From positions 1,600,001-1,664,000 of the forward strand of contig OY820905.2 of the NCBI GenBank assembly GCA_963555755.3: a stretch of 64,000 nucleotides of DNA, in the 5' to 3' direction. The position numbers were made by a program, and so were the translations under genes. This document shows, in pieces, positions 21,624 to 63,085 of the stretch. The notes beneath the pieces are model-generated. The model searched no databases, was not told where the DNA came from, and was given only the letters and a program-made list of their open reading frames with translations. The DNA comes from Nitrospirales bacterium (GTDB lineage: Bacteria > Nitrospirota > Nitrospiria > Nitrospirales > UBA8639). Each line of letters starts with the position of its first letter. Position 1 is the stretch's first letter.

Positions 21624-21950
21624 GTCAATTTTCCCAACACACTGTCGGTTAATTAGCACTATTATTCCATCCCTTCGACTGTTCCCCCTTTGCTTAAGGG
21701 TTTGCGCAAAAATAACTTCCCCTGTTTAGACGTCGATTCATCCCGTCAGGCGGCGTTGCTCGTCCTTTCCATACGAGGAGTATGTGCAGTCCTCGCGCCT
21801 TGCCAGACAGGCGTCTCAGCACCCAAACATGGAAAGTTATTCTTGCGCGAACCCTAAGGGCTAAAGTCCCACTTCTTCTCATGACGAACGTGCATTTCAT
21901 TGAGTCTGGTTGTGACAGGCTGTCACTGATATTCCTGGCATGAGGCTTGC
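21624..21950 (+). promoter_or_regulatory. sigma54 promoter cassette F (upstream box 21624; TGGCATGAGGCTTGC 21936-21950), interrupted by a MITE
   Basis: Shares CTGTCAATTT..CAAC and CCCTTCGACTGTTC with cassettes at 29.5 and 63 kb. Confidence 0.7.
21697..21855 (-). mobile_element. MITE family A, copy 3 (inverted)
   Basis: Reverse complement of copies 1 and 2. Confidence 0.9.
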
Positions 21951-22070
21951 CTATAAAAAGGTTGAGAGCGCTCCCTTACAGGAGAGGAAATGGTTGTGCC
22001 AGGCGAACGTCAGGATCCTGACGGAGACGGGCAGCGTGGTGTATGTCATGAAAAGGGAACGTGAAACACG

Positions 22071-23162
22071 ATGATTGGTCAAAAGCAGAGTTGGTTAAGG
22101 ACTCATCGAATGTTAGCTGGGCTGTTGGCTGTGGGGGTACTTGTGTCGTTGGGTGCAACCGTTGGAGGAATTCCTCTTTCTGAAACCATTTTCGGAATTG
22201 ATGGAGTACATCAGGTCGATGGTCAAAATAATTCCCCAGTTCAGGTCGAACTACCCAAACCCTCTTGGCACCTGAATACATATGATGAGAACAAAGCCAA
22301 ACTCATTGTCCTGCCCAGCAATCCAAATATACGGCGAGTCGAAGTGACCCAAGCTGATACGACAGCCAGATGGCACATTCAATTAAGCCACAAACCTATT
22401 ATTGTGGAGGGGCAGGAGTGGTACTCCCTGCGTTTCCGAGCCCGAGCGGATGATGTGCGATCAATGGGGGCGGCCGTCAGTCAAGCACATGGTCCATGGG
22501 AAGTTCTTGGTCTGTATCGTTCAGTTCCCCTGATGAGGCAGTGGCAAGATTATAAATGGGAATTTCTTGCGACAGAGGATGATATCAATGCTCAGATCAC
22601 TTTTGATTTGGGTGGGTGGAAAGTCCCGGTTGAAGTCACAGCGGTTCGGCTCCTGAAACTCTCCAATGGAACGCTAAGGTGGAAGCTACAATTTCGAGAG
22701 GGAAGTGAAGCTGGGTTGCTGGGAATCCCAGAATTACCTCTTGGCACTCGAGTGGCTATTACCAAATCGCTCAACAACAACCCCAAACATATTCAATTGG
22801 TTCAACAAGGGGTAAACCTCCAGGTGAATGAACGATACCGACTACGATTTCACGCACGTGCTGACACACCACGAGACATGTATTTGGCGGTAAACCAGGC
22901 CCAGTATCCTTGGGAGGGCTTGGGTTTGAATCAAAAGGTTTCGCTCACCTCTGAATGGCAGCTCTTCGATTTGGAATTTGTCGCGACGAGCACAGATGAG
23001 AACGCAAGACTTATTTTTGAGCTAGGCGGACACAATATTCCCGTGGATATCAACGCCGTGTTGTTGCAGAGAAATTCCGAGATGGTGATACACAGTGGGG
23101 ATTCCTCAGCCCCTTCCTTGGGCAGAGCTACAGACACCCTGGTTGCGGTGGAGCCAACCTAA
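22071..23162 (+). CDS. Membrane-anchored or secreted protein with two tandem CBM4/9-like carbohydrate-binding domains
   Basis: Duplicated pattern W/H.IQL.....Y.LRF.ARAD..R...AV.QA..PWE.LGL...V.L...WQ....EF.AT.....A...F.LGG. Confidence 0.8.
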   Translation: MIGQKQSWLRTHRMLAGLLAVGVLVSLGATVGGIPLSETIFGIDGVHQVDGQNNSPVQVELPKPSWHLNTYDENKAKLIVLPSNPNIRRVEVTQADTTARWHIQLSHKPIIVEGQEWYSLRFRARADDVRSMGAAVSQAHGPWEVLGLYRSVPLMRQWQDYKWEFLATEDDINAQITFDLGGWKVPVEVTAVRLLKLSNGTLRWKLQFREGSEAGLLGIPELPLGTRVAITKSLNNNPKHIQLVQQGVNLQVNERYRLRFHARADTPRDMYLAVNQAQYPWEGLGLNQKVSLTSEWQLFDLEFVATSTDENARLIFELGGHNIPVDINAVLLQRNSEMVIHSGDSSAPSLGRATDTLVAVEPT

Positions 23163-23171
23163 ATCCCTTTT

Positions 23172-23293
23172 GGGAATGTTGAAAAAGGGCGTCAGCGGCG
23201 TTCTCGCCCCTTTGTCGTGCTCACGTACTATGAGTACGCTCCGCGCGTCAAAGGGGCTGCGGCCTTGCTGAGCGCTCCTTTTTGAACATCCCC
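23172..23293 (+). mobile_element. MITE with IRs GGGAATGTTGAAAAAG / CTTTTTGAACATCCCC
   Basis: Terminal IRs and internal hairpins; related copy at 14.5-14.75 kb. Confidence 0.8.
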
Positions 23294-23630
23294 TGTTGCT
23301 CTTGGTGTTTCATAAGATGAGTCACATGTGAACGGCATTATGAAAACGTTTCAATTATTCAACGGTCCCCTTTGGTGAATAATAATGGGAATGCCGTTTG
23401 GTCCACTAGGCCAAGCGATATCTCATTTCTGCTACCTGTTTCCTCCTGGTTTCTTGGTGGAAGGGAATTCGAACCCTCCTTGATGGAGGATTGATACATA
23501 AGTTGCATCGCCATATTTTGATTTTTCACTATACCCAAACTCGGGGATGTTTTAATCCAACACGTTCCACTGAGTATTGCCAAAATGGCCATTGGGTAAA
23601 CCAACGAACTCTCTGCCTTGACGGTTATTC

Positions 23631-26621
23631 ATGAAAGCCATTTCGATCCGTGTTGTAGAATCGGTTAAACAACATCCGGTCCTAGCGGGAATACTCGTTA
23701 TGGGGTTTCTGCTTCGGATCTCGGTTGTGTTTTGGGGAACCCCTTTCTTTGGCCCTTTTGAGGGATATTATCACCCTGATGAGTGGAACATTATTCAGGG
23801 TGCTATCCAATTTCCGAACCATGCCGTTGACAATCTAAGATTCGTCTATCCCACCTTCTTCCACTATTTCTTGGGGATTCTGACCTTTCCCTTACGAATA
23901 TTCTTTGAAGACTTTAGTTCTCCCACGCTGGATACTGTAGGTTCAAATTTCTATTGGGTCGTGACGGTCGTCGGACGACTCTGCTCGGTGTTAGCGGGAA
24001 TGGGGACGATAGTTCTGACTTACCTTCTTGCCAAAGATGTGTTGGATCAAAAACGGGCCCTTTTGGCCAGTGCATTTCTGGCCTTTACGATGTTACACGC
24101 CACGAACTCTGCTGTGGTGACTCCTGATGTGCTCACTTCTTTCTTCCTTGTCTTGTTTCTTTTGGTACTTCGCCGTGCATTCTTACAACCTCAATCTTCT
24201 TTTTTGTTTGTGTGTTCGGGGATGGTTCTTGGACTCTTGGTCGGAACCAAATACACCGGAGCGTTTGCGATTTATGCGATGGTGGTACTCTATGGCTATA
24301 CGTTGGTGTCACATGTCCGCCGTGAAAACAGCAATATTCGATTTGATCACCGAAAATTTCATGGGAATCTCCTCCTGTGTGGTGGCGTGGCTCTGGTCAC
24401 ATTTTTTCTGACGACACCAGGAATTTTGCTTCATTTTGATGCCTTCCTTGATTCCATGAATGACGTGACGAGGCAAATTGGGTGGAAATCCAAACCTAGG
24501 AGCGATATGCAAACCTGGGTGACGGTGTTTCATAAATTTGAACGAGGTGTCGGTTTGCCATTAGCGTGTCTTTTTTTATTTGGGATGTTCTTCCCATACA
24601 AAAAGAATGTGTATGAATGGAGTTTTTTGGCGATAGTGGCTGGATTCTTTATGTATTTTGAGGCCAAATTCATTTCAAGGTACATCATATTTGTTGCACC
24701 ATTAATTGCCATCATCGCGAGCAATGCCGTGTTCTGGTTGATCGAAAGGAATCGCAAATCGCTTCGAGTCGCTGGATATTTTCTCATTATTGTTGTCTCG
24801 GTGTATTCCTTTGGCCATTCTGCCACTGGGGTATCTATGCGTCTTGATGATACGCGCACTCAAGCTGCTCATTATATTCACAACAGATTCCCTGACGAGA
24901 CGACCCTCGGAATAACCTATGCTCCCAGAGACGGGGATTATAAATTGCATCGTTGGAGGAACCCAAGAATTAATTTCACCAAGTTCAGAGACATGGATAT
25001 TTTCGATTATCCGGAAGTGGTGATCGTTTCTTCCCTTGTGAAACTAAGACCTATCAAAAAAGCGCTGCACTCCGATAAGTTGTCTGAAGATTTTGTGTGG
25101 GACCAACGGTATAACCATAAATGGCGGTGGGACTCACCTCCCTCACCTCGTATGTTTCGCTTCTACCATGAACTCTTCGAGGCCGATCGCTCAAGATATC
25201 GTCTAGTAAAAACCTTCAAAAAAAAGCTATCCGTCTGGTTAGAACATAGCTCACCCCAAATGGACATTTATGTTCGCCAATCCTATGGCCCACAAATGGA
25301 GAGGAGAGTTTATTATCCCAGCAATCCGCGTGATTACTTTCAAGAGAAAGATATGCGGGATTGGCGCTGGCAGCTTCGAGTGGAAGAGGGCAACAAGGCA
25401 AAGCTGAAATTTCCATCAAAAGACCTGAACGCGATCCGGATTGCCATTAAGAAGGCGGACGTTGGTCCTCCTTGGGCTATTCAACTCAACCAACGGCCAG
25501 TCGCCATACTGAATAATGAGGCGTACGTCTTACATTTTCGTATTCGAGCCGATAATGCCCGATTAGTAGCTGTGGCGGTTGGGCAAACCTCCGCGCCCTG
25601 GCAGACGGTGGGATTGTATCAGCACGTGCAGGTGACGGAGGACTGGCAGGAGTATGCCTTGTCGTTTCGAGCCGAAGCCGATGAGCCTCAAGCGCGCGTA
25701 TTTTTCGATTTGGGGGAGAGTGCTGTATCCGTTGAAATCGGTGATGTGCAACTTCGACACAAGTCGGACGTGGTGTTGGCCAGTCTGACTAGGAGCCGAC
25801 AGGGATGGCGTTCGGCAAATGAATTAATCGAACCCGATTATCCGGATAAGTTTTATGTGGACTATCAGTTCAATACCATGGGGTGTCGGGGCCGGGACTA
25901 TCCTATCCCACGTACGAGCGAGGGCACGCGCATTCTGGTCTTGGGAGATTCGTTGGCCTTGGGTGCCGGGGTGCATCAAGAGGATACATTGGCTAGTCAA
26001 CTCGAAGGGATGTTGAATCAAGGCCGGCAAGGAACAATCACAGGACCGGGCTATGAAGTCATCAACTGTGGGGTAGAAGGGTACGGAACCCAGGAGGCAG
26101 CTAGATTCTACGAAACATTTGGGTCGACCTATGCGCCGGATATCGTGCTGCTGGTTATGGCACCGGACGATGATCACTCGTTGTTCCAGGAAAGGAGGCA
26201 GAAGATATTGAGGAGCCCAGGAAGTCAATTTGTAGCTTGGTCGGACCAACAAGAGAGACTATTTAATCGTTCGGCTCCGGATTATTCGGGGAGCCTCAAA
26301 GAGGTGGCTAACCTTCAACAATTGGTTGAAGGGCGGGGTGGAAAATTGGCAGTGGTGGTCTTTCGACATACTCAGCATCAAGCCTGGAAGCCTCTGATCC
26401 AGCAACTGACCCAATCATTTCGAAACACGACTGTGCAGGTGTTAGATCTCGGGGAGACCTTGCTGGCAAGCCATTCAGAAGATGAGCTGATAGTTCATGA
26501 AGAGGATAAACATCCTAATGATTTGGCACACAGGATCGCGGCACAGGGCCTACGAGATTTTTTAACTCGGAAAGGACTGCTCGTTGGGCAGCCTATCGCT
26601 AGATTGGATGCAACGCTGTAA
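23631..26621 (+). CDS. Fusion: GT-C (ArnT/PMT-like) + CBM4/9-like + SGNH/GDSL hydrolase
   Basis: YHPDE, YPTFFHY, GTKYTG and many TM helices; CBM WAIQLNQ..LHFRIRAD; SGNH VLGDSLALG, INCGVEGYG, DKHPN. Confidence 0.88.
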   Translation: MKAISIRVVESVKQHPVLAGILVMGFLLRISVVFWGTPFFGPFEGYYHPDEWNIIQGAIQFPNHAVDNLRFVYPTFFHYFLGILTFPLRIFFEDFSSPTLDTVGSNFYWVVTVVGRLCSVLAGMGTIVLTYLLAKDVLDQKRALLASAFLAFTMLHATNSAVVTPDVLTSFFLVLFLLVLRRAFLQPQSSFLFVCSGMVLGLLVGTKYTGAFAIYAMVVLYGYTLVSHVRRENSNIRFDHRKFHGNLLLCGGVALVTFFLTTPGILLHFDAFLDSMNDVTRQIGWKSKPRSDMQTWVTVFHKFERGVGLPLACLFLFGMFFPYKKNVYEWSFLAIVAGFFMYFEAKFISRYIIFVAPLIAIIASNAVFWLIERNRKSLRVAGYFLIIVVSVYSFGHSATGVSMRLDDTRTQAAHYIHNRFPDETTLGITYAPRDGDYKLHRWRNPRINFTKFRDMDIFDYPEVVIVSSLVKLRPIKKALHSDKLSEDFVWDQRYNHKWRWDSPPSPRMFRFYHELFEADRSRYRLVKTFKKKLSVWLEHSSPQMDIYVRQSYGPQMERRVYYPSNPRDYFQEKDMRDWRWQLRVEEGNKAKLKFPSKDLNAIRIAIKKADVGPPWAIQLNQRPVAILNNEAYVLHFRIRADNARLVAVAVGQTSAPWQTVGLYQHVQVTEDWQEYALSFRAEADEPQARVFFDLGESAVSVEIGDVQLRHKSDVVLASLTRSRQGWRSANELIEPDYPDKFYVDYQFNTMGCRGRDYPIPRTSEGTRILVLGDSLALGAGVHQEDTLASQLEGMLNQGRQGTITGPGYEVINCGVEGYGTQEAARFYETFGSTYAPDIVLLVMAPDDDHSLFQERRQKILRSPGSQFVAWSDQQERLFNRSAPDYSGSLKEVANLQQLVEGRGGKLAVVVFRHTQHQAWKPLIQQLTQSFRNTTVQVLDLGETLLASHSEDELIVHEEDKHPNDLAHRIAAQGLRDFLTRKGLLVGQPIARLDATL

Positions 26622-26767
26622 ACAGTCTTGCGAAGATGGCAAGAGAGAAACGTGGAAAATGGGTCTATTGGCGCTCCCGCCATTTCTTGTAGATAGGTAA
26701 TGAACGGTCAATGAGGCTAGATGGGTGAGGACTTTCATCCGTCAGAATGAGACGGTCTGAGGGCTGG

Positions 26768-28300: not shown

Positions 28301-28525
28301 GAAGGGTATTCCTTACCTGATAAGCCTGTAATGAAAATAAGCGTTCGAAAAAAACTAACATAACCGGTATCAAGAAACGTTTGCTCGCTCATGTCCAATT
28401 GCATATTCATCAACGCTTCGATGAGCACTTACTTCTATTCGGAGAATTGAGTGGTTTTCTAAAAAACGACGTAGCGTTTTGGTGAAAACCACGGTTGATC
28501 TGATGCCTCCTGAAAAAAACTGGTT

Positions 28526-28692
28526 ACCAATTTCCCAACATTCGTCAAAACACTCCACGAAAATACATCTATACCCTTCCATGGCTTAACAGGTTTAATG
28601 GAGCATTTTTTTCCCACCCCACCGGTAAAACCTGGTCCTTTTCGCTATCTTTTGCTTCCCCCCAGAAAGAAGAGCCGTGGCATAAGCTTTGC
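28526..28692 (+). promoter_or_regulatory. sigma54 promoter cassette D (TGGCATAAGCTTTGC 28678-28692), upstream of gmd
   Basis: Homologous block CAATTTCCCAACATTCGTCAAAACACTCCACGAAAA 153 bp upstream of the GG. Confidence 0.8.
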
Positions 28693-28763
28693 ATAGTGTG
28701 CGAGGTTCTTCTTCTGTTGTGGACGTTCAGTATGTCTCTTTAGACTTCCTTCTCGGCACCTGA

Positions 28764-29490
<727 letters not shown>

Positions 29491-29557
29491 GGCCACAAGT
29501 ACGTTTGCTATTTCCTTACCGATCTTTTCGGAGGAACAGTCCTTTGACGGAAAGCAG

Positions 29558-29770
29558 CCTGTCAATTTCTCAACGCTCGTCAAAACCTTCCACGAAAAAG
29601 AATCCAAACCCTTCGACTGTTCTAAGGGTTAATTGGGTTCGCCTTTCTCACTCCACGCATAGATCGGGGGTATTTTCGAGATCTTTCACTGCCACCTGAG
29701 AAAAAATCCGTGGCATATATTTTGCAAGAATTTCAACGAGTTTCTCCCTTTTCACCGTAGGGTTTGGGTG
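29558..29770 (+). promoter_or_regulatory. sigma54 promoter cassette A (TGGCATATATTTTGC 29711-29725)
   Basis: About 210-bp block homologous to 52575-52780 and to the reverse complement of 62905-63085. Confidence 0.85.
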
Positions 29771-29988
29771 ATGGGGGCTGATCCCAGCGATCACGCCAGA
29801 AAGAAGACGCCGATAAACCATTCAACGGCAAATGGCCAAGCCGTGGGCATTTCAGGAAAATTTTTCGTCATCGCTTCCGATAATAGCGTGCGACACCTTC
29901 GCCAATACTTAGGTACGATACCTGATCAGAGGGTCATATACCTATTTGAAGTCAGTTTCCCCTGTCTATTCCCCGTCATGGTTTTGCG

Positions 29989-32900
29989 ATGAAAATATTA
30001 TCTGAACGAATAATGAAAGTGTTAAAAGAACATCAGATGCTCGCGGCGATACTGGGTATCGGGTTTCTGCTTCGGATATGGGGAATTTTATGGGGAATCC
30101 CTTTCCCAGACCCGTTGGAGGGAATTTATCACCCCGATGAACCTAAAATTATTAAAGGTGCCGTTGAATTTCCCGGACATATTCTCACCAATCAAAATTT
30201 TATTTACCCAACTTTTTTCTCCTATTTTTTAGGATTCATTACGTTTCCGCTTCGGTTATTTTTCGATGGATTTAATGTACCGGGGCCTGGAGGCATAGGT
30301 TCAAATTTTTATTATGTCGTCACGGTGATAGGTCGGCTCTGTTCGGCTCTCGCTGGAACGGGCTCGATTTTCCTCACCTATTTGCTGGCCAAAGATATTT
30401 ATGATGAGAGACGTGCTCTGTTAGCCGGTGCATTTCTTGCGTTGACCTTCTATCACGCGAGTAATTCTTCTGTGGCTACGACTGATGTGCTCACTTCATT
30501 TTTTTTGGTGTTGTTTCTCTTTGTACTCCGCCGTGCCTTTCTCGCCCCAGAATCTCCTTCCTTGTTTATGATATCAGGCATGATCCTGGGCCTCCTGATG
30601 GGTACAAAATATACCGGAGCTATTGTCAGTTTGGCCATTGTGGTGATGTATGTGGACATGCTATGGGGCCGATCGCGTAGTCACAATGAAGGAGGGCACT
30701 TCAACTTACGCACATTGCATGTTCATCTCCTCCTGTGTTGTGGAGCGACTATTGTCACGTTTTTTCTCACGACCCCCGGAATCCTTATCCAATTTAATGG
30801 CTTCATTGATTCAATGGCTTACAATTTCAGGTATGTCGGTCGGTGGGCCATGCCCAGAAACGACTTGGATGTCTGGGTGGCTGTGTTACAAAAGATCGTG
30901 ATGGTGGTTGGGCTTCCCTTGACGAGTGTGTTTCTCCTCGGTCTCTTTTTCCCATACAAGAAGAACGTGCATGAAGTCATCTATATCCTGATTTTGGTTG
31001 TTTACTTTTTATATCTTGAGAACAGGTTGCTACCGAGATACGTGATTTTGGTTGCACCATTGGTGGCTATCATTGCGAGTAATGGATTGGTCTGGTTTTA
31101 TGAGTCGGCGAAAAAACCAGTTCATATCCTTGGGCTTTCGATGATGACGATCGTTTTAGTGTACTCCCTAGGCTATTGTTTGACTGGTGGGTACTTGCGC
31201 TATAACGACACGCGAACCCAGGCGGCACATTTTATCCAGGACACGTTTCCTCAAGGGACAACGGTGGGGCTTGGGTATGTTGCAGAAGAGATCGGTTGGG
31301 CTGCTCACCCTTGGAGGTATCCCCAAATCGATCTGACGCGGTTCACGTATATGGATTTTCTGGATTACCCTGAGGTGTTGGTGACCTCCTCCGAGTATGA
31401 CACCACACGAATTGAAGATGCGCTGAAATCAGATAAGCTGTCAAAGGATTATGTTTGGAATGTGGAGTACAACAAAAATTGGTTTGAATTCTCCCCTCCC
31501 TCTCCTCGGATATTTCGTTTCTATGAAAAATTGTGGTCTTCCGAACGATCACATTATCTGCTCCTGAAAACCTTTAAAATGAAGAATGTCGTTCCTCTGG
31601 AGTTTGGTTCTCCTGAAATTAACATCTATGTTCGTCAGTCCTATGGTCCAAATTTAGTTCGACGGACGTATTATCCTAACAATCCGCGTGGGTATTTTCA
31701 GGAGGAAGATCCGAGAGTTTGGCGGTGGCAGTCTAAGGTTTGGGAGGGGTCCGAGGCCAATCTGGTGTTTCCTGATGAGGATCCCCAAGGCGTACGAATT
31801 GCTATTAGCCGTGCAGGTTCTGATGTGCCTTGGCATATTCAATTGAATCAGGCGCCTGTGGCGGTTAAGGCAATGGAAAAGTACTTGTTACGATTCAGGG
31901 CCCGTGCCGACCACCCGCGTTCCATGGTCCTTGCTCTCAGTCAAGCTGACAATCCATGGCGTAATCTTGGATTGTATCAGGAGGTGGCCCTCACTACGGA
32001 GTGGCAAGACTTTGATGCCGAGTTTATTGCCACGCGGGATGAACTGCGCGCACAAGTGCATTTTGCTCTTGGAGGGAAGGCCGTATCCGTGGAGATCGCA
32101 GGGGTGAGATTGCAGCGAAAATCTGACATTCTGTTAGCAAGCTTGAGCACAACAACACTCTCCTCGTTCGGCTGGGGTATTCATGCGGTCTCCAGTGACC
32201 AAAGTCAATTTATAGAACCTGATCTGCCCGATAGATATTACGTGGAATACCGGCTTAATGCCCAGGGTTGTCGTGGACGGGATTATCCCATACCTCGGTC
32301 TAATCAAGGGATGCGCATTTTGGTCCTTGGCGACTCCTATGCACTGGGGGCTGGGGTGCACGAGGCTGATACTATGGCCAGTCAACTTGAAAGTCTATTA
32401 CATCAAGATAAATTAGGTGCGAGTTCTAGCATGAGCTATGAGGTCATCAATTGTGGGGCAGGTGGGTACGGCACACGAGATGAGGCGGTGTTATCTGAAA
32501 AATTGGTGTCGAGGTATCAGCCGGATGTGGTCTTACTCGTTATGACACCCGACGACGATCAATCCTGGGTTGAAGGGGCAAAACGTGGTGAGTTTGATCA
32601 TCTGAGGAAAGATCGAGATCAATTTGTCTCCTGGTCTGACCACAAAGAAAAACTTTTTCAACGATCTTCTCCGGATTATTCAGGGAGCCTCCGAGCGATA
32701 CATGATCTTCGACAATCGGTTCAAGGTCGTGGCGCACGTTTGGTTGTGGTCCTATTTCGAAATAATCAAGATCAAGCATGGACGCCGCTAGTCAGTCAGA
32801 TAACCGAGGGGCTGAAGGAAACCGGTATCCCCGTATTGGATCTTGGTACAGTATTGTTAAAAAACCAGCCTGGACAGGATCTAACCGTTCACGAGAATGA

Positions 32901-33006
32901 CAAGCATCCAAATGAGATTGCGCACAAGATTGCTGCAGGGGCAATTCTTGCCTCTTTAAATAAAGAAGATTTTTTTAGTCCCCTCGTAGTGCCGAGCAAA
33001 CCCTAA
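29989..33006 (+). CDS. Fusion: GT-C + CBM4/9-like + SGNH hydrolase (paralogue of 23631-26621)
   Basis: Same collinear motifs: YHPDE, GTKYTG, WHIQLNQ..LRFRARAD, VLGDSYALG, DKHPNE. Confidence 0.88.
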   Translation: MKILSERIMKVLKEHQMLAAILGIGFLLRIWGILWGIPFPDPLEGIYHPDEPKIIKGAVEFPGHILTNQNFIYPTFFSYFLGFITFPLRLFFDGFNVPGPGGIGSNFYYVVTVIGRLCSALAGTGSIFLTYLLAKDIYDERRALLAGAFLALTFYHASNSSVATTDVLTSFFLVLFLFVLRRAFLAPESPSLFMISGMILGLLMGTKYTGAIVSLAIVVMYVDMLWGRSRSHNEGGHFNLRTLHVHLLLCCGATIVTFFLTTPGILIQFNGFIDSMAYNFRYVGRWAMPRNDLDVWVAVLQKIVMVVGLPLTSVFLLGLFFPYKKNVHEVIYILILVVYFLYLENRLLPRYVILVAPLVAIIASNGLVWFYESAKKPVHILGLSMMTIVLVYSLGYCLTGGYLRYNDTRTQAAHFIQDTFPQGTTVGLGYVAEEIGWAAHPWRYPQIDLTRFTYMDFLDYPEVLVTSSEYDTTRIEDALKSDKLSKDYVWNVEYNKNWFEFSPPSPRIFRFYEKLWSSERSHYLLLKTFKMKNVVPLEFGSPEINIYVRQSYGPNLVRRTYYPNNPRGYFQEEDPRVWRWQSKVWEGSEANLVFPDEDPQGVRIAISRAGSDVPWHIQLNQAPVAVKAMEKYLLRFRARADHPRSMVLALSQADNPWRNLGLYQEVALTTEWQDFDAEFIATRDELRAQVHFALGGKAVSVEIAGVRLQRKSDILLASLSTTTLSSFGWGIHAVSSDQSQFIEPDLPDRYYVEYRLNAQGCRGRDYPIPRSNQGMRILVLGDSYALGAGVHEADTMASQLESLLHQDKLGASSSMSYEVINCGAGGYGTRDEAVLSEKLVSRYQPDVVLLVMTPDDDQSWVEGAKRGEFDHLRKDRDQFVSWSDHKEKLFQRSSPDYSGSLRAIHDLRQSVQGRGARLVVVLFRNNQDQAWTPLVSQITEGLKETGIPVLDLGTVLLKNQPGQDLTVHENDKHPNEIAHKIAAGAILASLNKEDFFSPLVVPSKP

Positions 33007-34961: not shown

Positions 34962-35039
34962 GGGATCCTGGGCTCACTTTCCTTTATTGAAGGTGTGGGG
35001 TGGAAAAATTTCTCATTGATTGACTGTACCTCACTCCTT

Positions 35040-36766: not shown

Positions 36767-37279
36767 TCTTTTGCCGCTTTTTGGTGTTGCAATGGATTTT
36801 TTTAAAAAGACCAAGGAAGCCAAAGACTTAGTGTACGAAAACATTTCCAGGAAATTCATCGGCGCACATAGGCGTGATCTGAAATTCAGCAAGTAATTAT
36901 ATCTAGCATTTTCTGTCATACCTGAATCTTTGGAACTCGTTATTGATATTTAAGTGTTGTTGAGTGAAATCGTTCAGGAGAAAAGGTATCTTGAAAAAAA
37001 CTCCGAAACAATTAGGCGGGGTCCTTCATAGCAATATCAGATCTGAACAGGCTCCAAATCCTGATAGCCCTGTGACGTTGATGGATAAGATCGATCATCT
37101 TGGCCGGAGACATATTGCATTTTATTGGCGCTTCACCGCCTCCCTTCCTGGGCTCGGCTAATCCGATTCTAACCATTCCCCAATTGGGCCTTTGGCTTTC
37201 GAAATATTTGAGGCATAGCTCACGCATGTCGAATCGTTGTACACACTTCTGATAATTTCCCGTTTTGGTTCTACCGACT

Positions 37280-37446
37280 GTCAGATTTCCGACATTCCGT
37301 CAGAATCTCCGCGAGAATTTAACCTCCCCCCTCTCTTTCTCAATCTCAGAGAGAGTCCCTTAGGCAAGAAATTCACTGCATTTTTACACATTAATTAGAA
37401 GTTTTGGTGGATGCCCAGAGGAAATATCTTCTGGTATCTGTCTTGC
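37280..37446 (+). promoter_or_regulatory. sigma54 promoter cassette E (box GTCAGATTTCCGAC; TGGTATCTGTCTTGC 37432-37446)
   Basis: GTC-N8-GAC box 153 bp upstream of a GG-N10-GC element. Confidence 0.7.
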
Positions 37447-37571: not shown

Positions 37572-38576
37572 ATGGACATGGTGAGTAGTGAACAGCCGAC
37601 GCAAACCCTGCCCCCCCCGGACGTCTCAGTCATCATTCCCTCCTTTAACAGTGCCCCTCATGTCCGCCAATGCCTGGATGCCCTGAAGGCCCAAATTACC
37701 ACATGTTCCTATGAAGTGATTCTGGTTGACAGCTCACAAGACGCCACACATGACATCGTGACTGACGAATATCCTGACGTGAGACTGTTCCATTTTGATG
37801 AGCGATGCTCAGTGGGCAAAGCACGCAATATTGGGGTTGAGAAAGCCAAGGCGGAAATCGTGTTATTTTTGGATACGGATTGCGTGCCCATTCCCACATG
37901 GCTCGAGCAACTGTACTCGGCCCTTCAGAGTCATCATGTGGTGGGGGTTGGAGGGGCCATCGAGAATGGCACTCCGACAAATATCATGGGGTCGGTGGGG
38001 TTTTACCTCGAATTTTTTCGGTTCCTTTCCTGCAAGGGTTCACCGTGTTTTTCCACATTTCTCATGGGAGGCAATTCGGGGTTTAGAAAAACGGTGTGCC
38101 AATCTCTTCCATTTAAGGATGCCAGTATTGGCGATGATTTCCTGTTTACATGGCATTTGGTTCACAGTGGAAGGCCGTTGTTGTTTGTACCCTCCGCGGT
38201 TGTTCGACACATTAATAAAACCGGACTCCGAAACGTATTAAATTATCAATACCAATTGGGGCTTGGGGCTTGTGCCTATCGTCAAACGGTGTCACCCAGG
38301 CTCAGTTCCTCTATGAAGCGCCTCCCGCCGGCCATTTTCTTGTCTTCAGTTTTTGTCCTGTTCTGGATTGGATGCCTCGTTCTGAAACGGGAAAAGGTTT
38401 TTGATGGGATCAAGTTTTTCCTATTACTTCCCTTTCTCTTGTTTGGACATTTGGTGTGGGCCACGGGTTTCTTTCGGGAAATCATGCGAATACGAAAACT
38501 TCAACCTCACCGACACCCACAAGATCCTTTGATGAGAATGCCACAGTCTGAAGCAGGAGGACAGGCAAAGGGATGA
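37572..38576 (+). CDS. Glycosyltransferase family 2
   Basis: AAGGAGGAG RBS; VSVIIPSFN, VILVDSSQD, ARNIG, FLDTDC. Confidence 0.92.
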   Translation: MDMVSSEQPTQTLPPPDVSVIIPSFNSAPHVRQCLDALKAQITTCSYEVILVDSSQDATHDIVTDEYPDVRLFHFDERCSVGKARNIGVEKAKAEIVLFLDTDCVPIPTWLEQLYSALQSHHVVGVGGAIENGTPTNIMGSVGFYLEFFRFLSCKGSPCFSTFLMGGNSGFRKTVCQSLPFKDASIGDDFLFTWHLVHSGRPLLFVPSAVVRHINKTGLRNVLNYQYQLGLGACAYRQTVSPRLSSSMKRLPPAIFLSSVFVLFWIGCLVLKREKVFDGIKFFLLLPFLLFGHLVWATGFFREIMRIRKLQPHRHPQDPLMRMPQSEAGGQAKG

Positions 38577-42113: not shown

Positions 42114-42167
42114 GCGAAATCACATACTTGAAAGGCGCACAGGTAGAACTCAGGGCGTTCTGGATTC

Positions 42168-43880: not shown

Positions 43881-44136
43881 GTTGGACATTTGTCGTGTCA
43901 ATCAAGTGGCTTTTCACCAATACCCAGTCGTATGCGGCGCGGTCAAACAAGGGCGCGGGAGGGGAATCTTTAGCCGGGTCCCCATGACAGGTGGGTGACC
44001 ATGGCGCAGCGATTTCTTCTAACCAGCGCATCGGTCACACTCATCCTGTGTCTCCTTGAAGGCCGCGTCCTTGTTAGAATTGTGGACTTCACATACTTGA
44101 AAGGCGCACAGGTAGAACTTAGGGGGTTCTGGATTC

Positions 44137-45852
44137 ATGGCGTTCTCTTCAACGATAGCCAGATCTTGGTTAGTGAGTCGGTTTAAGAATGAGAGGGCCA
44201 TTCCTCTCCTCTTAATTGCCATTGTCGTACTGATTTGGATTCCCCGGTTGGATGGACCTATCGATCTGCGGTGGGATGGGGGCGTGTACTACATTCTGGG
44301 CACCTCAATTGCTCAAGGTGAGGGATATAGGCTTCTCAATGAGCCTGAGGAGATCGAAGCTGTCCAGTATCCTCCGCTGCTCCCGCTGATCGTTGCGGCG
44401 CATCAGTGGCTGCTGGGGACAAGCGATTTCCTGGTGGTTGGACAATGGCTAAGGATCTTCTATTTCTTCCTGTACATAGGCGTTTCTATTTCTGTGTACT
44501 GGCTCGCACGGCTGTATTTGACTCCAGGGTATGCCTTACTTGCAGCGGTCGTGTGCATCCTGGATTTAAATATGTATTACCTGTCCAACCTATTGTTCGC
44601 GGAACTCCCCTTTACGCTTCTGACGACGCTCTTTGTCATTTTGAATCAGAAAAGCGAAAAGTTTGGATATGCCATGTTAACCGCAGTAGCAGGGGTGGCA
44701 ACGTACTTTCTGCGGACGGCAGGGATTGCCCTACTCGCCGCCTGGGTGGTTGAAAGCTTTCTGCACCGTCGATTTAAACAGATGGCTGTCCGAGCACTGG
44801 TGGCACTGATCCCGATCCTGATCTGGCAGGCACACATTGATGGAGTGCAGTACAGCCCGGAGTACACGCAACCCGCATACGAGTATCAACGTGCACCCTA
44901 CCAGCAACACAACGTTACTTACCTGGAGAATATTTCGCTGATCAAACCGTTCAGTCCTGAATTGGGCCAAGTGACAGCAGAGGAGATGATCAGGCGTATT
45001 GCGATGAACGCGATCGCCATTCCGGAGGCGCTGGGAGGAGCCGTGGCGGCCTCGAATTGGTTGTGGTTTTTGGGGGTGGTGATGGAGGCCTCTGAACTGC
45101 CTGGCTTCCCGCTGCTCCCAACGTGGCTGGACGATGTAACGTCGTTGCTTTTCGCGAGCCTGGTGATTGCCGGAATGATATTGCTGGCGGCCCGCGGAAA
45201 GTGGTTCATCCCGCTTTATTTTGCTAGCTCTGTCGGCCTCATTCTATTGACTCCCTTCCAAGGGCAGTTTACACGTTACTTCACGCCCTTAGCCCCCTTC
45301 CTGATCCTTTCCCTATTTTACGCCCTTGCGTGTGTCCAGGAGCGTTGCCTCCGATGGTTTGTGGGGCCATGGAAGAAAGCCGGCCCACTGCTGAGTATTC
45401 TGGTTATATCGATAATTTTCATCGTGGAGGGAGTATCTCTGGCCGGGACATACAGCAAGCGGCGCTATGCTGTGAGTTACTATGATGCCCATGGGAATGA
45501 GGCGGTACACCATTTATTTTTTTACTTCCCATCATGGAAAGCGCTGGACGCTTCACTGGAATGGTTGCGGCAGCGGTCCAAGCCGGATGAGGTGATCGCG
45601 ACGAGCGTGCCCCACTGGGCTTTTCTGCGTATTGGGCGCAAGGCGGTGTCGCCTCCTATGGTCGTAGGGAGTGAAAACGTACAGCGGTTGTTGGATTCAG
45701 TCCCGGTGAAGTATGTCGTCGTGGACAAATTAGAATGGCCAGATATCAGCCAACGGTACCTCGCGCCCGCGATCGAGAAACTTCCGGATTTTTGGAAGCT
45801 TGTCTACGTTGCGCCGGAGGGGAAGTCCCAAATCTATGAGCGAATACAATGA
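44137..45852 (+). CDS. GT-C-like multi-pass membrane glycosyltransferase, copy 2
   Basis: Paralogue of 42168-43880. Confidence 0.8.
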   Translation: MAFSSTIARSWLVSRFKNERAIPLLLIAIVVLIWIPRLDGPIDLRWDGGVYYILGTSIAQGEGYRLLNEPEEIEAVQYPPLLPLIVAAHQWLLGTSDFLVVGQWLRIFYFFLYIGVSISVYWLARLYLTPGYALLAAVVCILDLNMYYLSNLLFAELPFTLLTTLFVILNQKSEKFGYAMLTAVAGVATYFLRTAGIALLAAWVVESFLHRRFKQMAVRALVALIPILIWQAHIDGVQYSPEYTQPAYEYQRAPYQQHNVTYLENISLIKPFSPELGQVTAEEMIRRIAMNAIAIPEALGGAVAASNWLWFLGVVMEASELPGFPLLPTWLDDVTSLLFASLVIAGMILLAARGKWFIPLYFASSVGLILLTPFQGQFTRYFTPLAPFLILSLFYALACVQERCLRWFVGPWKKAGPLLSILVISIIFIVEGVSLAGTYSKRRYAVSYYDAHGNEAVHHLFFYFPSWKALDASLEWLRQRSKPDEVIATSVPHWAFLRIGRKAVSPPMVVGSENVQRLLDSVPVKYVVVDKLEWPDISQRYLAPAIEKLPDFWKLVYVAPEGKSQIYERIQ

Positions 45853-52574: not shown

Positions 52575-52780
52575 CCTGTCAACTTCTCGACGCTTTGTCA
52601 AAACCCTCCACGAAAAAGAAACCAATCCCACGGGTTGAATGGGGTTAGCCTTCTTCCAACCCAAGCGTTAAACAGGTCGTATTTGGTGTTCTTCACCACT
52701 GCCCTGAGAGAAAGTCCGTGGCATATACTTTGCACTAAATTCAACGAGACTCTCTCTCTGAATCCGTAGGGTCTGGATAA
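52575..52780 (+). promoter_or_regulatory. sigma54 promoter cassette B (box GTCAACTTCTCGAC; TGGCATATACTTTGC 52719-52733)
   Basis: Homologous to cassettes A and C, with a deletion of about 10 bp between box and promoter. Confidence 0.85.
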
Positions 52781-52899
52781 TAGGGTTGGTTTCTGCGGAA
52801 TGGAAAAAACGAAGTGTAGGTTGAGACGTCCAAAGGCTAATAGTCAAAAGGTCCCGACCAAGATATATCAGGCAACATCATGGATCACTCTCGGTTGAG

Positions 52900-54183
52900 A
52901 TGAAGATAGCCCTCCTGTCATTTGAATATCCTGAAGAAACCGGGTTCGGCGGGATCGGTACCTATACCTGGTACCAGGCTCGCGCCTTAGTCAAGCTGGG
53001 GCACGAAGTGCATGTGTTGGCTGGGGCCACCGAGCCAACCGCACTTCGGATGGAAGCACATGATGGGGTTTTTGTGCACCGATATCGGAGCCATGGCTTC
53101 TTTCATCATTTTCCGACACTGCTGAATACGAGGAAATTGCTGAATAAAAACAAATTGGGGTGGACCAGTAATCGTGCAGAAAATGCCCTCAATATGTATC
53201 AGGCCTGGAAGGTGTTAGACCGTGAGCATCATTTTGATGTTGTGGAAATGCCGGAATGCGGGGCCGACGGTGCACTGATTAATCACATCACCTCGGCACG
53301 TACGATTATGAAGTTTCACTCACCGTCGCGCCTGATCATGCCACATTATGACGTGACGGCAACCGACATCGCGCTCTGTTCCTGGTTAGAGAAAATCGGG
53401 ATGTGGGGAGCCCAGGCATTTTCTTCTTGTTCGAAATTCCTTGCCGATGAAGCGCACAAGAAACTTGGGATTCGAGGTCCGATTCAGGTTATTCCCAATG
53501 GGATCGACCTGCAGTTATTCGACACGTCCGCGCGTGTGAATATTAGAAAGAAGTTCGGATTGTCCCCCACTCGGCTAATTATCTTTTTCTCAGGTCGAAT
53601 GGAACCTCGTAAGGGAATTCATCTGTGTAAGGATATTGCCACCTCAATTTTGGAACGATATGAGGTGGACTTTGTGTTTGCCGGACAGGACTTATTCAAT
53701 TACATGTCGGACACATTGCTTCCCTACCTCAAGGGGAGAACGTTGAAAGGGGCCGTGCATTACCTGGGAAAGCTTAACCTCACTGATGTTCGTTCCTTTC
53801 TCACTCAAGCTGATATTTTTCTCCTTCCAAGTCTTTGGGAGAACTGTCCTTATTCATGTCTTGAAGCCATGGCGTCTGGATGTGCCATTGTATGCTCGAA
53901 TCAGGGAGGCCTGCCTGAATTGATTCAGGACGGGCAGAATGGACTCCTCACGCCCAACGAACATGCCCCCTCATATATCGCCAATCTTGAACGATTGATT
54001 GAAGACCAACCCCTTCGTGAACGTTTAGGGGTGGCGGCCAGAAACACGATCGAGGACCGGTACACGGATATACATATTGCCCGCCAGTCTTTGGCGTATT
54101 ACGCAAAGGGTGTATGTCAGGGAATGCCTACCGCGGGAGAGGCCATCGGGACAGATCGTTTAGGAGAAAAGTGTGCAGAATAA
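52900..54183 (+). CDS. Glycosyltransferase family 4
   Basis: EYP..GGIGTY, IPNGID, GRMEPRKG, PSLWENCPYSCLEAMASG. Confidence 0.93.
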   Translation: MKIALLSFEYPEETGFGGIGTYTWYQARALVKLGHEVHVLAGATEPTALRMEAHDGVFVHRYRSHGFFHHFPTLLNTRKLLNKNKLGWTSNRAENALNMYQAWKVLDREHHFDVVEMPECGADGALINHITSARTIMKFHSPSRLIMPHYDVTATDIALCSWLEKIGMWGAQAFSSCSKFLADEAHKKLGIRGPIQVIPNGIDLQLFDTSARVNIRKKFGLSPTRLIIFFSGRMEPRKGIHLCKDIATSILERYEVDFVFAGQDLFNYMSDTLLPYLKGRTLKGAVHYLGKLNLTDVRSFLTQADIFLLPSLWENCPYSCLEAMASGCAIVCSNQGGLPELIQDGQNGLLTPNEHAPSYIANLERLIEDQPLRERLGVAARNTIEDRYTDIHIARQSLAYYAKGVCQGMPTAGEAIGTDRLGEKCAE

Positions 54184-54242
54184 TGTGGGGGCCATAGCTC
54201 GTTCAATCGTGAGCGAAGAACGAAGACTGAAAGGGTTTTGAA

Positions 54243-58637: not shown

Positions 58638-58639
58638 CC

Positions 58640-59461: not shown

Positions 59462-59539
59462 GAACAATCGAAAGGTTAAGGATGGTGTGAGACATTGGTG
59501 CAGGGGTTTGCCCCCCAAGATGTTGGAGTTGTATTCCCC

Positions 59540-60910
59540 ATGAACATTCTTCAAGTGATCCACTCGTTCCCTCCCCATAGTCTTGGAGGGTCAGAAATTT
59601 ATACCTACAACCTGTCACGAGAATTGGCGAAGTCTCACGAGATCATGGTTTTTCATGCCATCAACGATCCGAAGGCCGAAGAATATGACATAAAGGTTGG
59701 TTCATGCGATGGCTTCAAAGTTTCGACTATTAACAATACTTTTAAACAGTGCACGTCGTTTGAAACACATTATCGCAATGAGATGATTGCCAAAAAATTT
59801 GGTGAACTACTCGACGAAGTCACCCCCGATATCGTGCACATCGGGCATCTCATTGACCTTTCTGTCACGTTGGTGGACGAAGCAAAGAAGAGAAGCATCC
59901 CTGTCGTATTGACGTTGCATGATTTTTGGTTGTTCTGTCCACTCGGACGACTCCTCAAGGCCGATCTCACGTTGTGCCAGGGACCTCAAATGTCAAAATG
60001 TGCCAAGTGCCTAGCCCCTCAATTGTCTACGACCAAAGGGTTAAGACGTTTGTATCAAGGTATTCAAAAGGTTATTCCAAATTTTAATGAGAGAATAGGG
60101 ATTCGGAAGATTCTGAGTGTGTTGTATCGTCAATATGCCAAAGTCAAAGCTGCTCAAAATAACAATAACTCCGCTCATATTGAAAACAGAGCCTTGGAAA
60201 TCAAGCGAATTTGCTCCTTAGTTGATGTCTTTATTGCTCCGTCAAGGTTTTTGCTGGAGAAATTTGTCGAGTTCGGGATTCCGAAACAGAAACTGGTTTA
60301 TTGTGATTATGGGTTTGATACCTTGCCCTTTAAAGGTGTACCCAAAAAGCACTCGAGGAAAATCCGATTTGGGTATATTGGAACCCTTATTCCTTCCAAA
60401 GGTCTTCATGTTCTCATGGAAGCCTTTCATGCCATTCACGATGAAGATGTCGAGCTTCGTATTCATGGATATTACTCATCCTTCCATCTTGGCTTTGAAG
60501 ACTATCCCAATTCCCTTCGTGCCATGTCCTCAAAACATAATGTGTACTGGGGTGGGAAGTACGACAATACCGATGTGGCCAAATTATTGTCTGAGATCGA
60601 TGTCTTGGTGGTTCCCTCGATTTGGTATGAGAATTCGCCGTTAACGATTCATGAAGCGTTTTTGGCAGGAGTCCCTGTCATTACCTCAAATATCGGTGGT
60701 ATGGCAGAACTAGTGGAAGATGGAGTGAATGGTCTTCATTTTCAGATGGGGAGTGCAGGGGATCTGGCCAGGCAATTACAGCGAGTGATTGATGACCCTG
60801 GACTTCTCACCAAGCTAAGACCGAATGGATCATCGGTGACGTCAATTGAAAGCCATGCGCTGAAAATCGAAACAATCTATAGAGGAGTGAATTGCAGGGA
60901 AACCGTTTAG
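59540..60910 (+). CDS. Glycosyltransferase family 4
   Basis: FPP..GGSE.Y, TLHDFWLFCP, PSKG, PSIWYENSPLTIHEA. Confidence 0.93.
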   Translation: MNILQVIHSFPPHSLGGSEIYTYNLSRELAKSHEIMVFHAINDPKAEEYDIKVGSCDGFKVSTINNTFKQCTSFETHYRNEMIAKKFGELLDEVTPDIVHIGHLIDLSVTLVDEAKKRSIPVVLTLHDFWLFCPLGRLLKADLTLCQGPQMSKCAKCLAPQLSTTKGLRRLYQGIQKVIPNFNERIGIRKILSVLYRQYAKVKAAQNNNNSAHIENRALEIKRICSLVDVFIAPSRFLLEKFVEFGIPKQKLVYCDYGFDTLPFKGVPKKHSRKIRFGYIGTLIPSKGLHVLMEAFHAIHDEDVELRIHGYYSSFHLGFEDYPNSLRAMSSKHNVYWGGKYDNTDVAKLLSEIDVLVVPSIWYENSPLTIHEAFLAGVPVITSNIGGMAELVEDGVNGLHFQMGSAGDLARQLQRVIDDPGLLTKLRPNGSSVTSIESHALKIETIYRGVNCRETV

Positions 60911-60941
60911 TTTGAATCTTGCCATTAAAATGAACAAGCGG

Positions 60942-61736
60942 CTACGTACAGGCAGTTCTTGCCACAATTTTTTGCCCAGATAAACCACGTAAAGAGGCGG
61001 ACCGTGAGCTCAAGATAATCGTTTTGTTCGCGGACCAATAGCAGTTGGAGAGGAGGTTGGGGTTGGAGCCACTCTCGAACAGGGCGGTGCATATCTGGTA
61101 CTCGCCTGCGATTTGAAAAACATCCACTGGTTCCGCGAGAATCTTCACCGCCTGAGGAGCTTGATCTTCGCTGAACTCGATGTCAGACCTGAAGGGCACT
61201 GCATATTCCTCAAAGTTCGGAAGAAAATAGATCACGTCATCGGGACTGCGGATGCCGACGAAAAGATCAGCGACCATGGGTTCGCCCTTGTAATGGAAAT
61301 CCAAGTTCACTTCCAGTATGTCGCCGGGCTGCACCACTTTGCGGTTCACCCGAAGCTCGCTCCGCTGCAGTTGTTCCCTTGCCTGGGAATGGGGGTCATG
61401 GGTCCCGGTCGCCTTGAAACTATTTGGACCCTTCATGCGATCGAGGATAAAGTGCTGATCGTCATCACGATAGATGGGGCACCTTGTAGACTGGCACTCT
61501 GGCGGTAGGCGTTGCTCGCTCAGGGCTTGCCGGATCCTCTGCATAATCGGCCCATTCCAGATTTGCTCAAAGGATTCCTCGTTGACACTACCTACCACCG
61601 CACTTGAGAAGCAGCAGAAATTTACGCTGGCATCGGAAAGGATTACTGAGGTGCCCTGCCAGGGTACGTCACATAAGGATTGCCGCAGTTGCGTCGCTAT
61701 CCATAGAACTTGGTTTGGGTTCCCCGCAGCAGTCAT
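60942..61736 (-). CDS. Stand-alone SPASM/Twitch-like domain plus C-terminal beta-sandwich-like domain
   Basis: GGAG RBS; CDVPW...VNFCC...VGSVNEESFEQIWNG...IRQ...PECQSTRCP. No CxxxCxxC. Confidence 0.75.
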   Translation of the reverse strand: MTAAGNPNQVLWIATQLRQSLCDVPWQGTSVILSDASVNFCCFSSAVVGSVNEESFEQIWNGPIMQRIRQALSEQRLPPECQSTRCPIYRDDDQHFILDRMKGPNSFKATGTHDPHSQAREQLQRSELRVNRKVVQPGDILEVNLDFHYKGEPMVADLFVGIRSPDDVIYFLPNFEEYAVPFRSDIEFSEDQAPQAVKILAEPVDVFQIAGEYQICTALFESGSNPNLLSNCYWSANKTIILSSRSASLRGLSGQKIVARTACT

Positions 61737-61783
61737 AAAATCTCCCCCTCCGTAAGTGTTAAACCCTCGTACTTCTATCTAGG

Positions 61784-62710
61784 CTATTTGTGAGCGGTCT
61801 TATATTTTCCAGAGAAAATTGAGAGAATTCGTGGCGCCCATTTAGGATTCTCACATTTAGTACCGGAGTTTTGCACTGACCGCTCTTCCTGGAGCTCCGC
61901 CTCTGTAGGGGGGCCAGGTAACTCGATATTTAGTCCCAAAACCTCCGCTGCCTGGCGGGTCCGCTCGCGCTCACGATTGTATTCCGTACCGAATTTTCTG
62001 GTGCACTCTTCACGGTAATCGAAGATGCCACCAGTTTTCGTCTCGACCTGCCAGTCGAGCCAGTCCCCCTCGTGTAGGTGATAGTATCTGACGCCATCCA
62101 CTTTTAATGCCTTCGCCAAATACATCAGTGGCATCATGTCCTGTACGCTACTCTTGGTAATCACGAAGGAGAGGGTGATCTGGGTCCTATCACGCCGTGC
62201 CTCAAACCGGTCGACGTAGGTTTTAATGTTGCGGACGATGGGCCAGAAGTGCTTGCCGCGGATCCTCAAGAAGGTTTCAGGAGTGGCAGCATCTATGGAA
62301 AAGTTAATCGAAAGATAATTAGGGTAGTTCGCCAAGGCATCGAGATATTTCGGCGTACAGACTGAGCCGTTAGTGTTAAGGGACAGTCCTACCCCAGCCT
62401 CCGCACATCGGCTGACGATATCAAAGAACTCCGGGTCGATCATGAACTCGCTGATGCCATGAAACGCGAGCGCCTCGGATCTTGGGATCAACTCCAGCAA
62501 TTTTTTCCAGGTATCCCCTTCGTTCTTGGTCCTGGGAATCTGGTTGCCAACCCGATGATCGATGCAGTAGACGCACCGAAAGTTACAAATGTTTGATCTT
62601 GCGATCTGCAAGTTTGGAGGGATAGATTTGACGTTGGCAATGCCGTGGGCGAGCTCCCATTGCGCCTGATACCTATTCTTCTGATTAAGTTTGAGTTTGT
62701 GAACTGACAT
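61784..62710 (-). CDS. Radical SAM protein lacking a C-terminal SPASM domain
   Basis: GGAGG RBS; CNFRCVYC, HGISEF, LNTNGS, FSIDAATPETFLRIRG. Confidence 0.9.
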   Translation of the reverse strand: MSVHKLKLNQKNRYQAQWELAHGIANVKSIPPNLQIARSNICNFRCVYCIDHRVGNQIPRTKNEGDTWKKLLELIPRSEALAFHGISEFMIDPEFFDIVSRCAEAGVGLSLNTNGSVCTPKYLDALANYPNYLSINFSIDAATPETFLRIRGKHFWPIVRNIKTYVDRFEARRDRTQITLSFVITKSSVQDMMPLMYLAKALKVDGVRYYHLHEGDWLDWQVETKTGGIFDYREECTRKFGTEYNRERERTRQAAEVLGLNIELPGPPTEAELQEERSVQNSGTKCENPKWAPRILSIFSGKYKTAHK

Positions 62711-62908
62711 CAAGTCTTCCTCCGCCGGTTCGAACGTTTGTCAAAACCTTGAGTGTGCCACAAGGCTGATGGTGTATCGTTACATCACAAAGGATGTTGA
62801 AGCAGGGTGAGACGAACGGAGCGTCGTATCTGGACCGAAATGTTTTGTTGGTAAATTCCCGCATGTCATCGAAAGCATTGCGAACAGATTCTTTCTATTG
62901 AGATAGAT

Positions 62909-63085
62909 GCAAAACCCATGCCACCGGCTTTCTCTCATGGCAATAGAAAAGAACACCAAAAACTATTCATATTAGGCTTGGGTTGGAAGAAGGCCAATCC
63001 AATTCAACCCATGGAACAGTCGGAGGGCTTAGAATCTTTTTCGTTGAGAATTTTGACAAAGTGTCGAGATTTCGACAGGAGACAG
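62909..63085 (-). promoter_or_regulatory. sigma54 promoter cassette C (box GTCGAAATCTCGAC; TGGCATGGGTTTTGC 62923-62909), upstream of the radical SAM pair
   Basis: Reverse complement aligns with cassettes A and B; box to GG distance is 154 bp. Confidence 0.85.

Follow-up and report, generated by a model that had tools for sequence, protein, structure and literature searches.

Which activator drives the sigma-54 promoters that recur along the surface-glycosylation island of a Nitrospirales bacterium (GenBank assembly GCA_963555755.3, contig OY820905.2, positions 1,600,001 to 1,664,000), and how did several of them come to resemble each other before unrelated genes? The window, as the whole stretch of 64,000 nucleotides (nt) is called here, is rich in insertion sequences (IS) and encodes glycosyltransferases (GT) of the families GT2, GT4 and GT-C (PMT_2), the last with CBM and SGNH domains, together with epimerases, an ABC-2 permease and ATPase, and radical SAM proteins. 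It contains six cassettes (A-F), each with a -24/-12 sigma-54 motif and two tandem boxes upstream. Judging from their sequence, we think that these are sigma-54 enhancer-promoters and that they most likely belong to the PEP-CTERM box/PrsR regulon, whose activator PrsR is a known biofilm switch and controls PEP-CTERM surface proteins. That regulatory module is already known, and the local copying of a promoter is the only less usual part. Positions without a prefix are those of the window, and G000:C1 (or C1) denotes the host chromosome of 4.6 Mb.

21623-21639 and 21643-21659, plus strand: boxes of cassette F, a 17-mer and a degenerate second box.
21697-21855, no strand assigned: MITE (miniature inverted-repeat transposable element) of 159 bp (15.1 helical turns) in the spacer of F.
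21936-21950, plus strand: sigma-54 -24/-12 motif of F, 135 nt before the gene of a CBM_4_9 protein (22071-23162), followed by a GT-C gene (23631-26621).
28525-28540 and 28543-28559, plus strand: boxes of cassette D, a decayed 16-mer and a 17-mer.
28678-28692, plus strand: sigma-54 -24/-12 motif of D.
28794-29490, plus strand: gmd pseudogene behind D, with a frameshift near 28945 and cut near 29490.
29560-29575 and 29578-29594, plus strand: boxes of cassette A, a 16-mer and a 17-mer.
29711-29725, plus strand: sigma-54 -24/-12 motif of A, 278 nt before a GT-C/CBM/SGNH gene (29989-33006).
37279-37294 and 37298-37314, plus strand: boxes of cassette E, a 16-mer and a weak 17-mer; the spacer has no family homology.
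37432-37446, plus strand: sigma-54 -24/-12 motif of E, 140 nt before a GT2 gene (37572-38576), followed by the ABC-2 permease and more GT2 genes.
52577-52592 and 52596-52612, plus strand: boxes of cassette B, a 16-mer and a 17-mer; the spacer is 12 nt shorter than that of C.
52719-52733, plus strand: sigma-54 -24/-12 motif of B, 181 nt before a GT4 gene (52900-54183), followed by GT2/GT4, ABC ATPase and GT4 genes.
63077-63062 and 63058-63042, minus strand: boxes of cassette C, a 16-mer and a 17-mer.
62909-62923, minus strand: sigma-54 -24/-12 motif of C, 210 nt before a radical SAM gene (62713-61784) and a SPASM gene (60942-61736, read from 61736 to 60942).

GG and GC were found at -24/-12 spacing in A-F, and the two boxes lie 18-20 nt apart in every cassette. 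A seventh cassette, G, was found at G000:C1:1669017, 5 kb past the window end. In A-E and G the distal box has 16 nt and the proximal box 17 nt, the latter starting 123-135 nt before the promoter, and in F the distal box has 17 nt and the MITE interrupts the spacer. Every cassette is oriented toward a gene that starts 116-278 nt downstream. The initial annotation had described at least six units with a GTC-N8-GAC-like box at a conserved distance from the -24 element. Its six coordinate pairs and distances are exact (151 nt in A, 153 in D and E, 154 in C, 142 in B and 313 in F), and the second box behind the first and the 159-bp MITE are there too; G now joins the six just outside the window. 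The box sequence itself is exact in B, C and E, but reads GTC-N8-AAC in A and, over 17 nt, GTC-N9-AAC in F, and in D it starts with ACC. A further sigma-54-like motif without an enhancer box occurs at 20363, with about four tandem copies of a 16-bp unit directly upstream (20279-20346).

The identity of the activator is suggested by the PEP-CTERM genes of the same genome. At eight of their promoters a 17-nt box stands 126-148 nt before the sigma-54 motif, and the proximal 17-mer of the cassettes resembles it at an overlapping distance; the spacers between box and promoter overlap as well, with 106-118 nt in the cassettes and 109-131 nt in the PEP-CTERM promoters. A first matrix was built from seven boxes of six PEP-CTERM promoters of this genome, with no cassettes included. 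Among 1282 sigma-54-like sites it ranked C at 12, B at 16, G at 19, A at 25, D at 29, E at 103 and F, whose MITE was not removed, at 751, while two held-out PEP-CTERM promoters came at ranks 4 and 10. A second matrix was derived from relatives only. Here 24 of 30 PEP-CTERM loci were not the genome's own, 18 of these had a sigma-54 motif, and 14 remained after four were dropped (two near-identical to this genome, two doubtful); as these genomes are kin, the promoter counts are not independent. Against 800 random windows, this matrix gave empirical p values of 0.004 for A and C, 0.009 for D, 0.018 for G and 0.035 for B. The width of the box is characteristic, with a seed of 17 nt in 12 of the 14 promoters and seeds of 15, 16 or 18 nt in none. 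Box distances are also helically phased at 10.5 bp (Rayleigh p 0.0002 at 25 non-cassette sites, which were selected, come from related genomes and are not independent), and the 12-nt deletion of B (1.1 turns) and the MITE of F both roughly keep the phase. In the species collection, two of the six matches to the tandem 16+17 pattern lie ahead of secreted proteins with PEP-CTERM-like tails, as judged by eye; this layout before such proteins is seen in the verrucomicrobial records L083 and L087.

The same box precedes PEP-CTERM and other genes throughout the genome, so that the regulon reaches beyond the units of the initial annotation. High-scoring 17-nt boxes were also seen at sigma-54 sites before genes other than PEP-CTERM genes (G000:C1:168602, 119563, 301650, 539576, 2187536, 3432259 and 4067299), among them genes for a cell-wall hydrolase, an acyltransferase-methyltransferase and a conserved 91-aa protein, and one for what is, by eye, a GGDEF-like response regulator. 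By their boxes, these seven sites are candidate members of the regulon. On the chromosome, seven of the 28 strict sigma-54 sites fall inside 1.600-1.670 Mb (70 kb), where 0.43 would be expected (scan-statistic p ~1.5e-4). The pattern of tandem boxes plus promoter has six matches genome-wide at 135-165 nt, all in the island, and none in four displaced windows; this test is partly circular because the pattern was written from the cassettes themselves.

Components of such a regulon are encoded in the genome. It has rpoN, as expected by the initial annotation, and 14 full matches to the sigma-54 activator domain, one broken. No sigma-54 activator gene was found in or beside the island, and the annotation's proposal of an activator encoded elsewhere held as well. 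A single activator scores above the PrsR cut-off (603 vs 502.6 bits); its gene, at C1:4332806-4334239, belongs to an epsH-epsI-prsK-prsR locus. A PrsT-like frame (395 bits), the C-terminal part of PrsK (335 bits), an exosortase and 15 PEP-CTERM matches over cut-off are also present, which gives the gene set of the PrsR regulon with prsK split. A FleQ-like gene at C1:4413292 heads the flagellar cluster. In the PAS-type sigma-54 activator gene at G000:C1:2244173-2245690, an in-frame TGA was noticed within the AAA+ domain.

The split of prsK is caused by a single-copy ISL3 element (G000:C1:4335932-4337306; L004:6932-8306) of 1375 bp, which lies just upstream of prsR in opposite orientation and is flanked by an 8-bp duplication. 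By sequence position it would separate the N-terminal membrane part of PrsK from the kinase part. The element is covered without differences in the sequencing runs X1 (one contig) and X5 (two overlapping contigs), although the assembly may have been built from either run. In run X9, a contig from a close relative joins across the site with prsK intact, and because of this relative without the element, the insertion is probably a recent event peculiar to this strain. A polar effect on prsR is possible. As the element splits prsK upstream of prsR, the PrsR regulon may be off, silent or deregulated in this strain.

In the proposed mechanism, dimers of phosphorylated PrsR would bind both boxes cooperatively and reach the sigma-54 holoenzyme over a loop of about 12 helical turns, so that the promoter opens. 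The exosortase substrates would then be produced along with glycosyltransferases, GT-C enzymes and a wzm/wzt-like exporter. The best matches to the IHF consensus in the cassette spacers had two to three mismatches, no better than in shuffled sequences, although the genome has five genes of the IHF/HU family.

Several observations weigh against PrsR as the activator. In the first matrix, rank 22 goes to the genome's own fliL promoter, and E (p 0.56) and F (p 0.21) do not score on the matrix of the relatives. The proximal boxes end with CCACR or CAACG instead of the consensus TTACA and reach 5-10 bits, compared with a leave-one-out median of 16.9; none of six cassettes ends with TTTACA. This end is a consensus and not invariant, as just nine of the 21 published PrsR sites taken from the supplement of PMC4641369 end with TTACA. 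One PEP-CTERM promoter of this genome ends with CAACA. The distal box has 16 nt and is one short of a PrsR site. The cassette spacer exceeds the published maximum for the PEP-CTERM box, for which 62.8 +/- 10.6 nt and a range of 32-92 nt are given in PMC1569441. Furthermore, 11 PEP-CTERM genes, some of them with the box, occur in the related genome G002 (99% complete, 110 contigs), and PrsR was not found there; nor were a FleQ orthologue and FliL. A Desulfosarcina flagellar promoter has the same 16+17 layout, the recognition helix of PrsR differs here from that of the DNA-binding domain listed for DVUA0057, the Desulfovibrio vulgaris PrsR, and NCBIfam at E 1e-5 did not call the two PEP-CTERM-like tails mentioned above. 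Finally, the six cassettes alone are not significantly phased (p ~0.1). A loose single-box pattern, tried as a phylogenetic profile, was dropped after it had matched 33 of 41 genomes, for the most part by chance; a stricter pattern matched 12 of the 41, including G002 and G017, where PrsR was not found.

These weak CCACR boxes, the genome G002 without a detected PrsR, the tandem boxes of fliL and Desulfosarcina, and a PrsR motif shared by a second D. vulgaris activator are the reasons to keep a FleQ-like or a third activator in mind, although we regard these readings, even taken together, as unlikely. A FleQ-type site has a clean phylogenetic footprint in the relatives (L149-L178 and L119-L148), before fleS and before fliL. 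At fleS it is a 16-nt palindrome 110-117 nt before the promoter, which was detected at width 16 in all 24 fleS promoters (six of 30 had been dropped as own or because the wrong site was picked) and equals the published FleQ-like motif yGTCA-N6-TGACr. The relatives' fliL promoters, of which 28 remained after two of 30 were dropped, have a tandem box pair with the main FleQ box 123-138 nt upstream. It is conceivable that the cassettes are composite enhancers, in which the FleQ-like activator of the flagellar cluster reads the distal box and PrsR the proximal one, which would tie glycosylation to both the motility and the biofilm switch. With 16 nt, the distal box of A, B, C, E and G, and of the G counterpart in a congener (G005), is just as wide as a FleQ site, a FleQ matrix gives p values of 0.006 for B, 0.013 for F and 0.04 for E, and Pseudomonas aeruginosa FleQ, for which a 14-base motif is described, binds promoters of biofilm genes (PMC12271599). 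However, an in-phase TGACR right half occurs in none of the six cassettes tested (A-E, G), compared with 24/24 fleS and 19/28 fliL promoters, so that the 16-nt yGTCA-N6-TGACr box of the FleQ/FlrA regulon is absent from them. In addition, the distal box has 17 nt in F and in the metagenome contig L077, its left half is lost in the D family, and tandem PrsR sites 19-20 nt apart are already published. We therefore consider the composite enhancer quite improbable. Of the FleQ lead in the initial annotation, only the 16-nt spacing of the distal box persists; it is the second box, a 17-mer of PEP-CTERM/PrsR type, that is informative. A log-ratio of half-sites favoured PrsR but was given little weight because it mainly penalises departure from the tight FleQ consensus; it also misclassifies the distal fliL box. 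Barely more credible is that another activator alone, FleQ-like or one of about 11 further sigma-54 activators, reads an island-specific YGTCR-N6/7-CVACR box. A, B, D, G and G005 agree in the right half CCACR, which is similar to the distal fliL box, and G002 keeps 17-nt boxes with neither a PrsR nor a FleQ orthologue detected, but the island offers no activator gene of its own, and distance, width and half-sites fit the PEP-CTERM set with its CAACA-ending member. As the proximal box matches the PEP-CTERM box, PrsR is encoded, and the FleQ palindrome is absent from the cassettes tested, PrsR is the likely activator.

It could also be argued that island duplications or IS ends left the cassettes behind as dead relics that do not act as promoters, given an IS-rich island with a broken gmd, a MITE within F and an interrupted prsK. 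Nevertheless, every cassette points into a nearby gene start, and the promoter cores of A-D are identical in 9/9 positions, compared with 56-77% identity in their spacers. In the congener G005, cassette G is kept before the orthologous gene with 18/20 identical positions in the half-sites and 9/9 in the promoter core vs 61/113 in the spacer, which is a footprint of this cassette. Across 114 other family genomes, the tandem pattern matched only here; the record L085 has the same sequence and is not independent. Features of a MITE or IS end were not found, since the longest inverted repeat at the borders has 6-7 bp and the borders differ by pair, and a genome search revealed neither IS matches nor cassette copies outside the island. 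Here the initial annotation, which had named an IS-end relic as the alternative, was right to prefer promoters. Together with the intact prsK of the close relative, this makes dead relics very improbable.

With PrsR as the preferred activator, the resemblance between the cassettes calls for an origin. After removal of the motifs, the spacers of A, B, C and D align with each other at z scores of 6.7-14, whereas E stays at or below 1.3 in every comparison with the cassettes, and F and G at or below 3.7. The homologous set of A, B and C in the initial annotation is thereby extended by D. Whole cassettes are 69-78% identical over 180-290 aligned nt, and the borders of homology vary by pair (A-B from -183 to +129, B-C from -178 to +45, A-D from -148 to +35). 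The genes behind them are unrelated, encoding a GT-C enzyme (A), a GT4 (B), a radical SAM protein (C) and gmd (D), so that A-D show what defines putative mobile promoters, namely homologous upstream regions before non-paralogous genes. By this comparison, E and G share the motifs only and not the family spacer.

Cassette F is, judging from its two halves, a chimera, because its 5' boxes match the contig L077 and its 3' spacer does not. The region 21600-21684 is 93% identical to L077, where F's boxes are followed by a family-type spacer (z 7.8-10.8 to A-D), and over its 3' 80 nt the F spacer of the window shows no match to the L077 cassette (z 0.7). L077 also has a D-like cassette directly after an orthologue of the gene at 23631-26621. 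A pattern search of metagenomes gave six matches, two of them true family members (L077 and L078, with the same sequence) and four chance matches in unrelated DNA; BLAST of cassette B against 40 relatives gave 0/40. A contig of run X9 joins the end of gene 23631-26621 to a cassette and on towards gmd (the short side has 25 nt, and the letters between are unknown). As relatives show cassettes in other gene orders and gmd is cut just before A, about 40-70 nt ahead of where the A homology begins, the island reads as a mosaic with family cassettes near several junctions. We infer that a single promoter, duplicated and recombined within the island, gave rise to A-D and to the 5' half of F. The promoter copying proposed at the outset thus applies to A-D and half of F, not to E and G. 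We would go further only with much reserve, as it seems unlikely that the unit of enhancer, promoter and leader is the recombination hub of the island, with modules swapped between strains by homologous exchange at these heads of 200-300 bp. If it were, each incoming module would land under the PrsR biofilm switch, possibly with a FleQ input at the distal 16-nt box, and the surface glycan could be varied without an integrase.

The broken gmd is the only gmd found in the genome, and the contig of run X9 has it without the frameshift. Members of the MITE family of F (159 bp) also lie at 14792-14950 and 18504-18662, and BLAST gives 197 hits to it across the genome. Another repeat, about 166 bp long, is present at 60651-60816 and 63833-63998. 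Tandem near-identical genes at 42120-45852 (94-97% DNA identity in the listed repeats) encode 570-aa proteins without a Pfam or NCBIfam match. Rfam at gathering threshold gave no matches in the window. For the GT-C protein nothing was confirmed in the species collection, and 200 genomes of the order gave one partial homologue (36% identity), without a sigma-54 motif upstream.

If PrsR indeed drives the cassettes, a switch can be named for a 50-kb surface-glycosylation island, and there would be support for the view that PrsR induces PEP-CTERM proteins jointly with enzymes potentially able to glycosylate them. The island would also be a small natural example of how a regulon grows by promoter copying. 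As a natural prsK insertion strain exists beside a prsK-intact relative, the regulon is testable.

A literature search, subscription papers not covered, found neither this regulon described for Nitrospira nor any account of copied PrsR promoters, and the closest known systems are the following. The PEP-CTERM box of Haft et al. 2006 (PMC1569441) is a 17-nt motif, in some cases repeated, that ends with TTTACA and is followed downstream by a -24/-12 motif; that study had also recorded a few sites ahead of other genes. Like the PrsK/PrsR/PrsT system of that paper, this genome has rpoN, prsR, prsK, prsT, epsH/epsI and PEP-CTERM genes. Unlike it, the cassettes have the right half CCACR/CAACG, a 16-nt distal box and glycosylation genes as targets, several are homologous copies, and prsK is split. 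For DVUA0057, PEP-CTERM targets were enriched in DAP-chip, with no validated motif in the passages concerned (Rajeev 2011, PMC3333781), and Kazakov 2015 (PMC4641369) places the regulon predicted for it in the category of exopolysaccharide and biofilm synthesis. The predicted sites have 17 nt, and seven of the 21 listed in the supplement, which cover 30 of 39 occurrences, end with CGACA or CAACA, as do none of the 26 FleQ-like sites listed; three pairs lie 19-20 nt apart among those listed. The cassettes are similar in their 17-nt boxes, CGACA/CAACA-like ends and paired spacing, but differ in the 16-nt distal box, as both sites of the DVUA0057 pairs have 17 nt. That motif is a prediction, not validated by binding in the passages concerned, which do not mention copied spacers either. 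With the FleQ/FlrA-type box (DVU2894, PMC4641369) they share the 16-nt width of the distal box and its left half TGTCR, but not the TGAC right half. In Aquincola, an RpoN-dependent PEP-CTERM promoter was mapped, and a prsK insertion mutant was floc-deficient and not complementable (PMC9850573). The putative mobile promoters of Nijveen et al. 2012 (PMC3575422) are homologous upstream regions before unrelated genes in one genome, and A-D resemble them in this. Measured over whole alignments, the identity of the cassettes stays under 80%, the threshold that was applied there to stretches of 50 nt, and here the unit is a whole enhancer-promoter-leader that is confined to one island.

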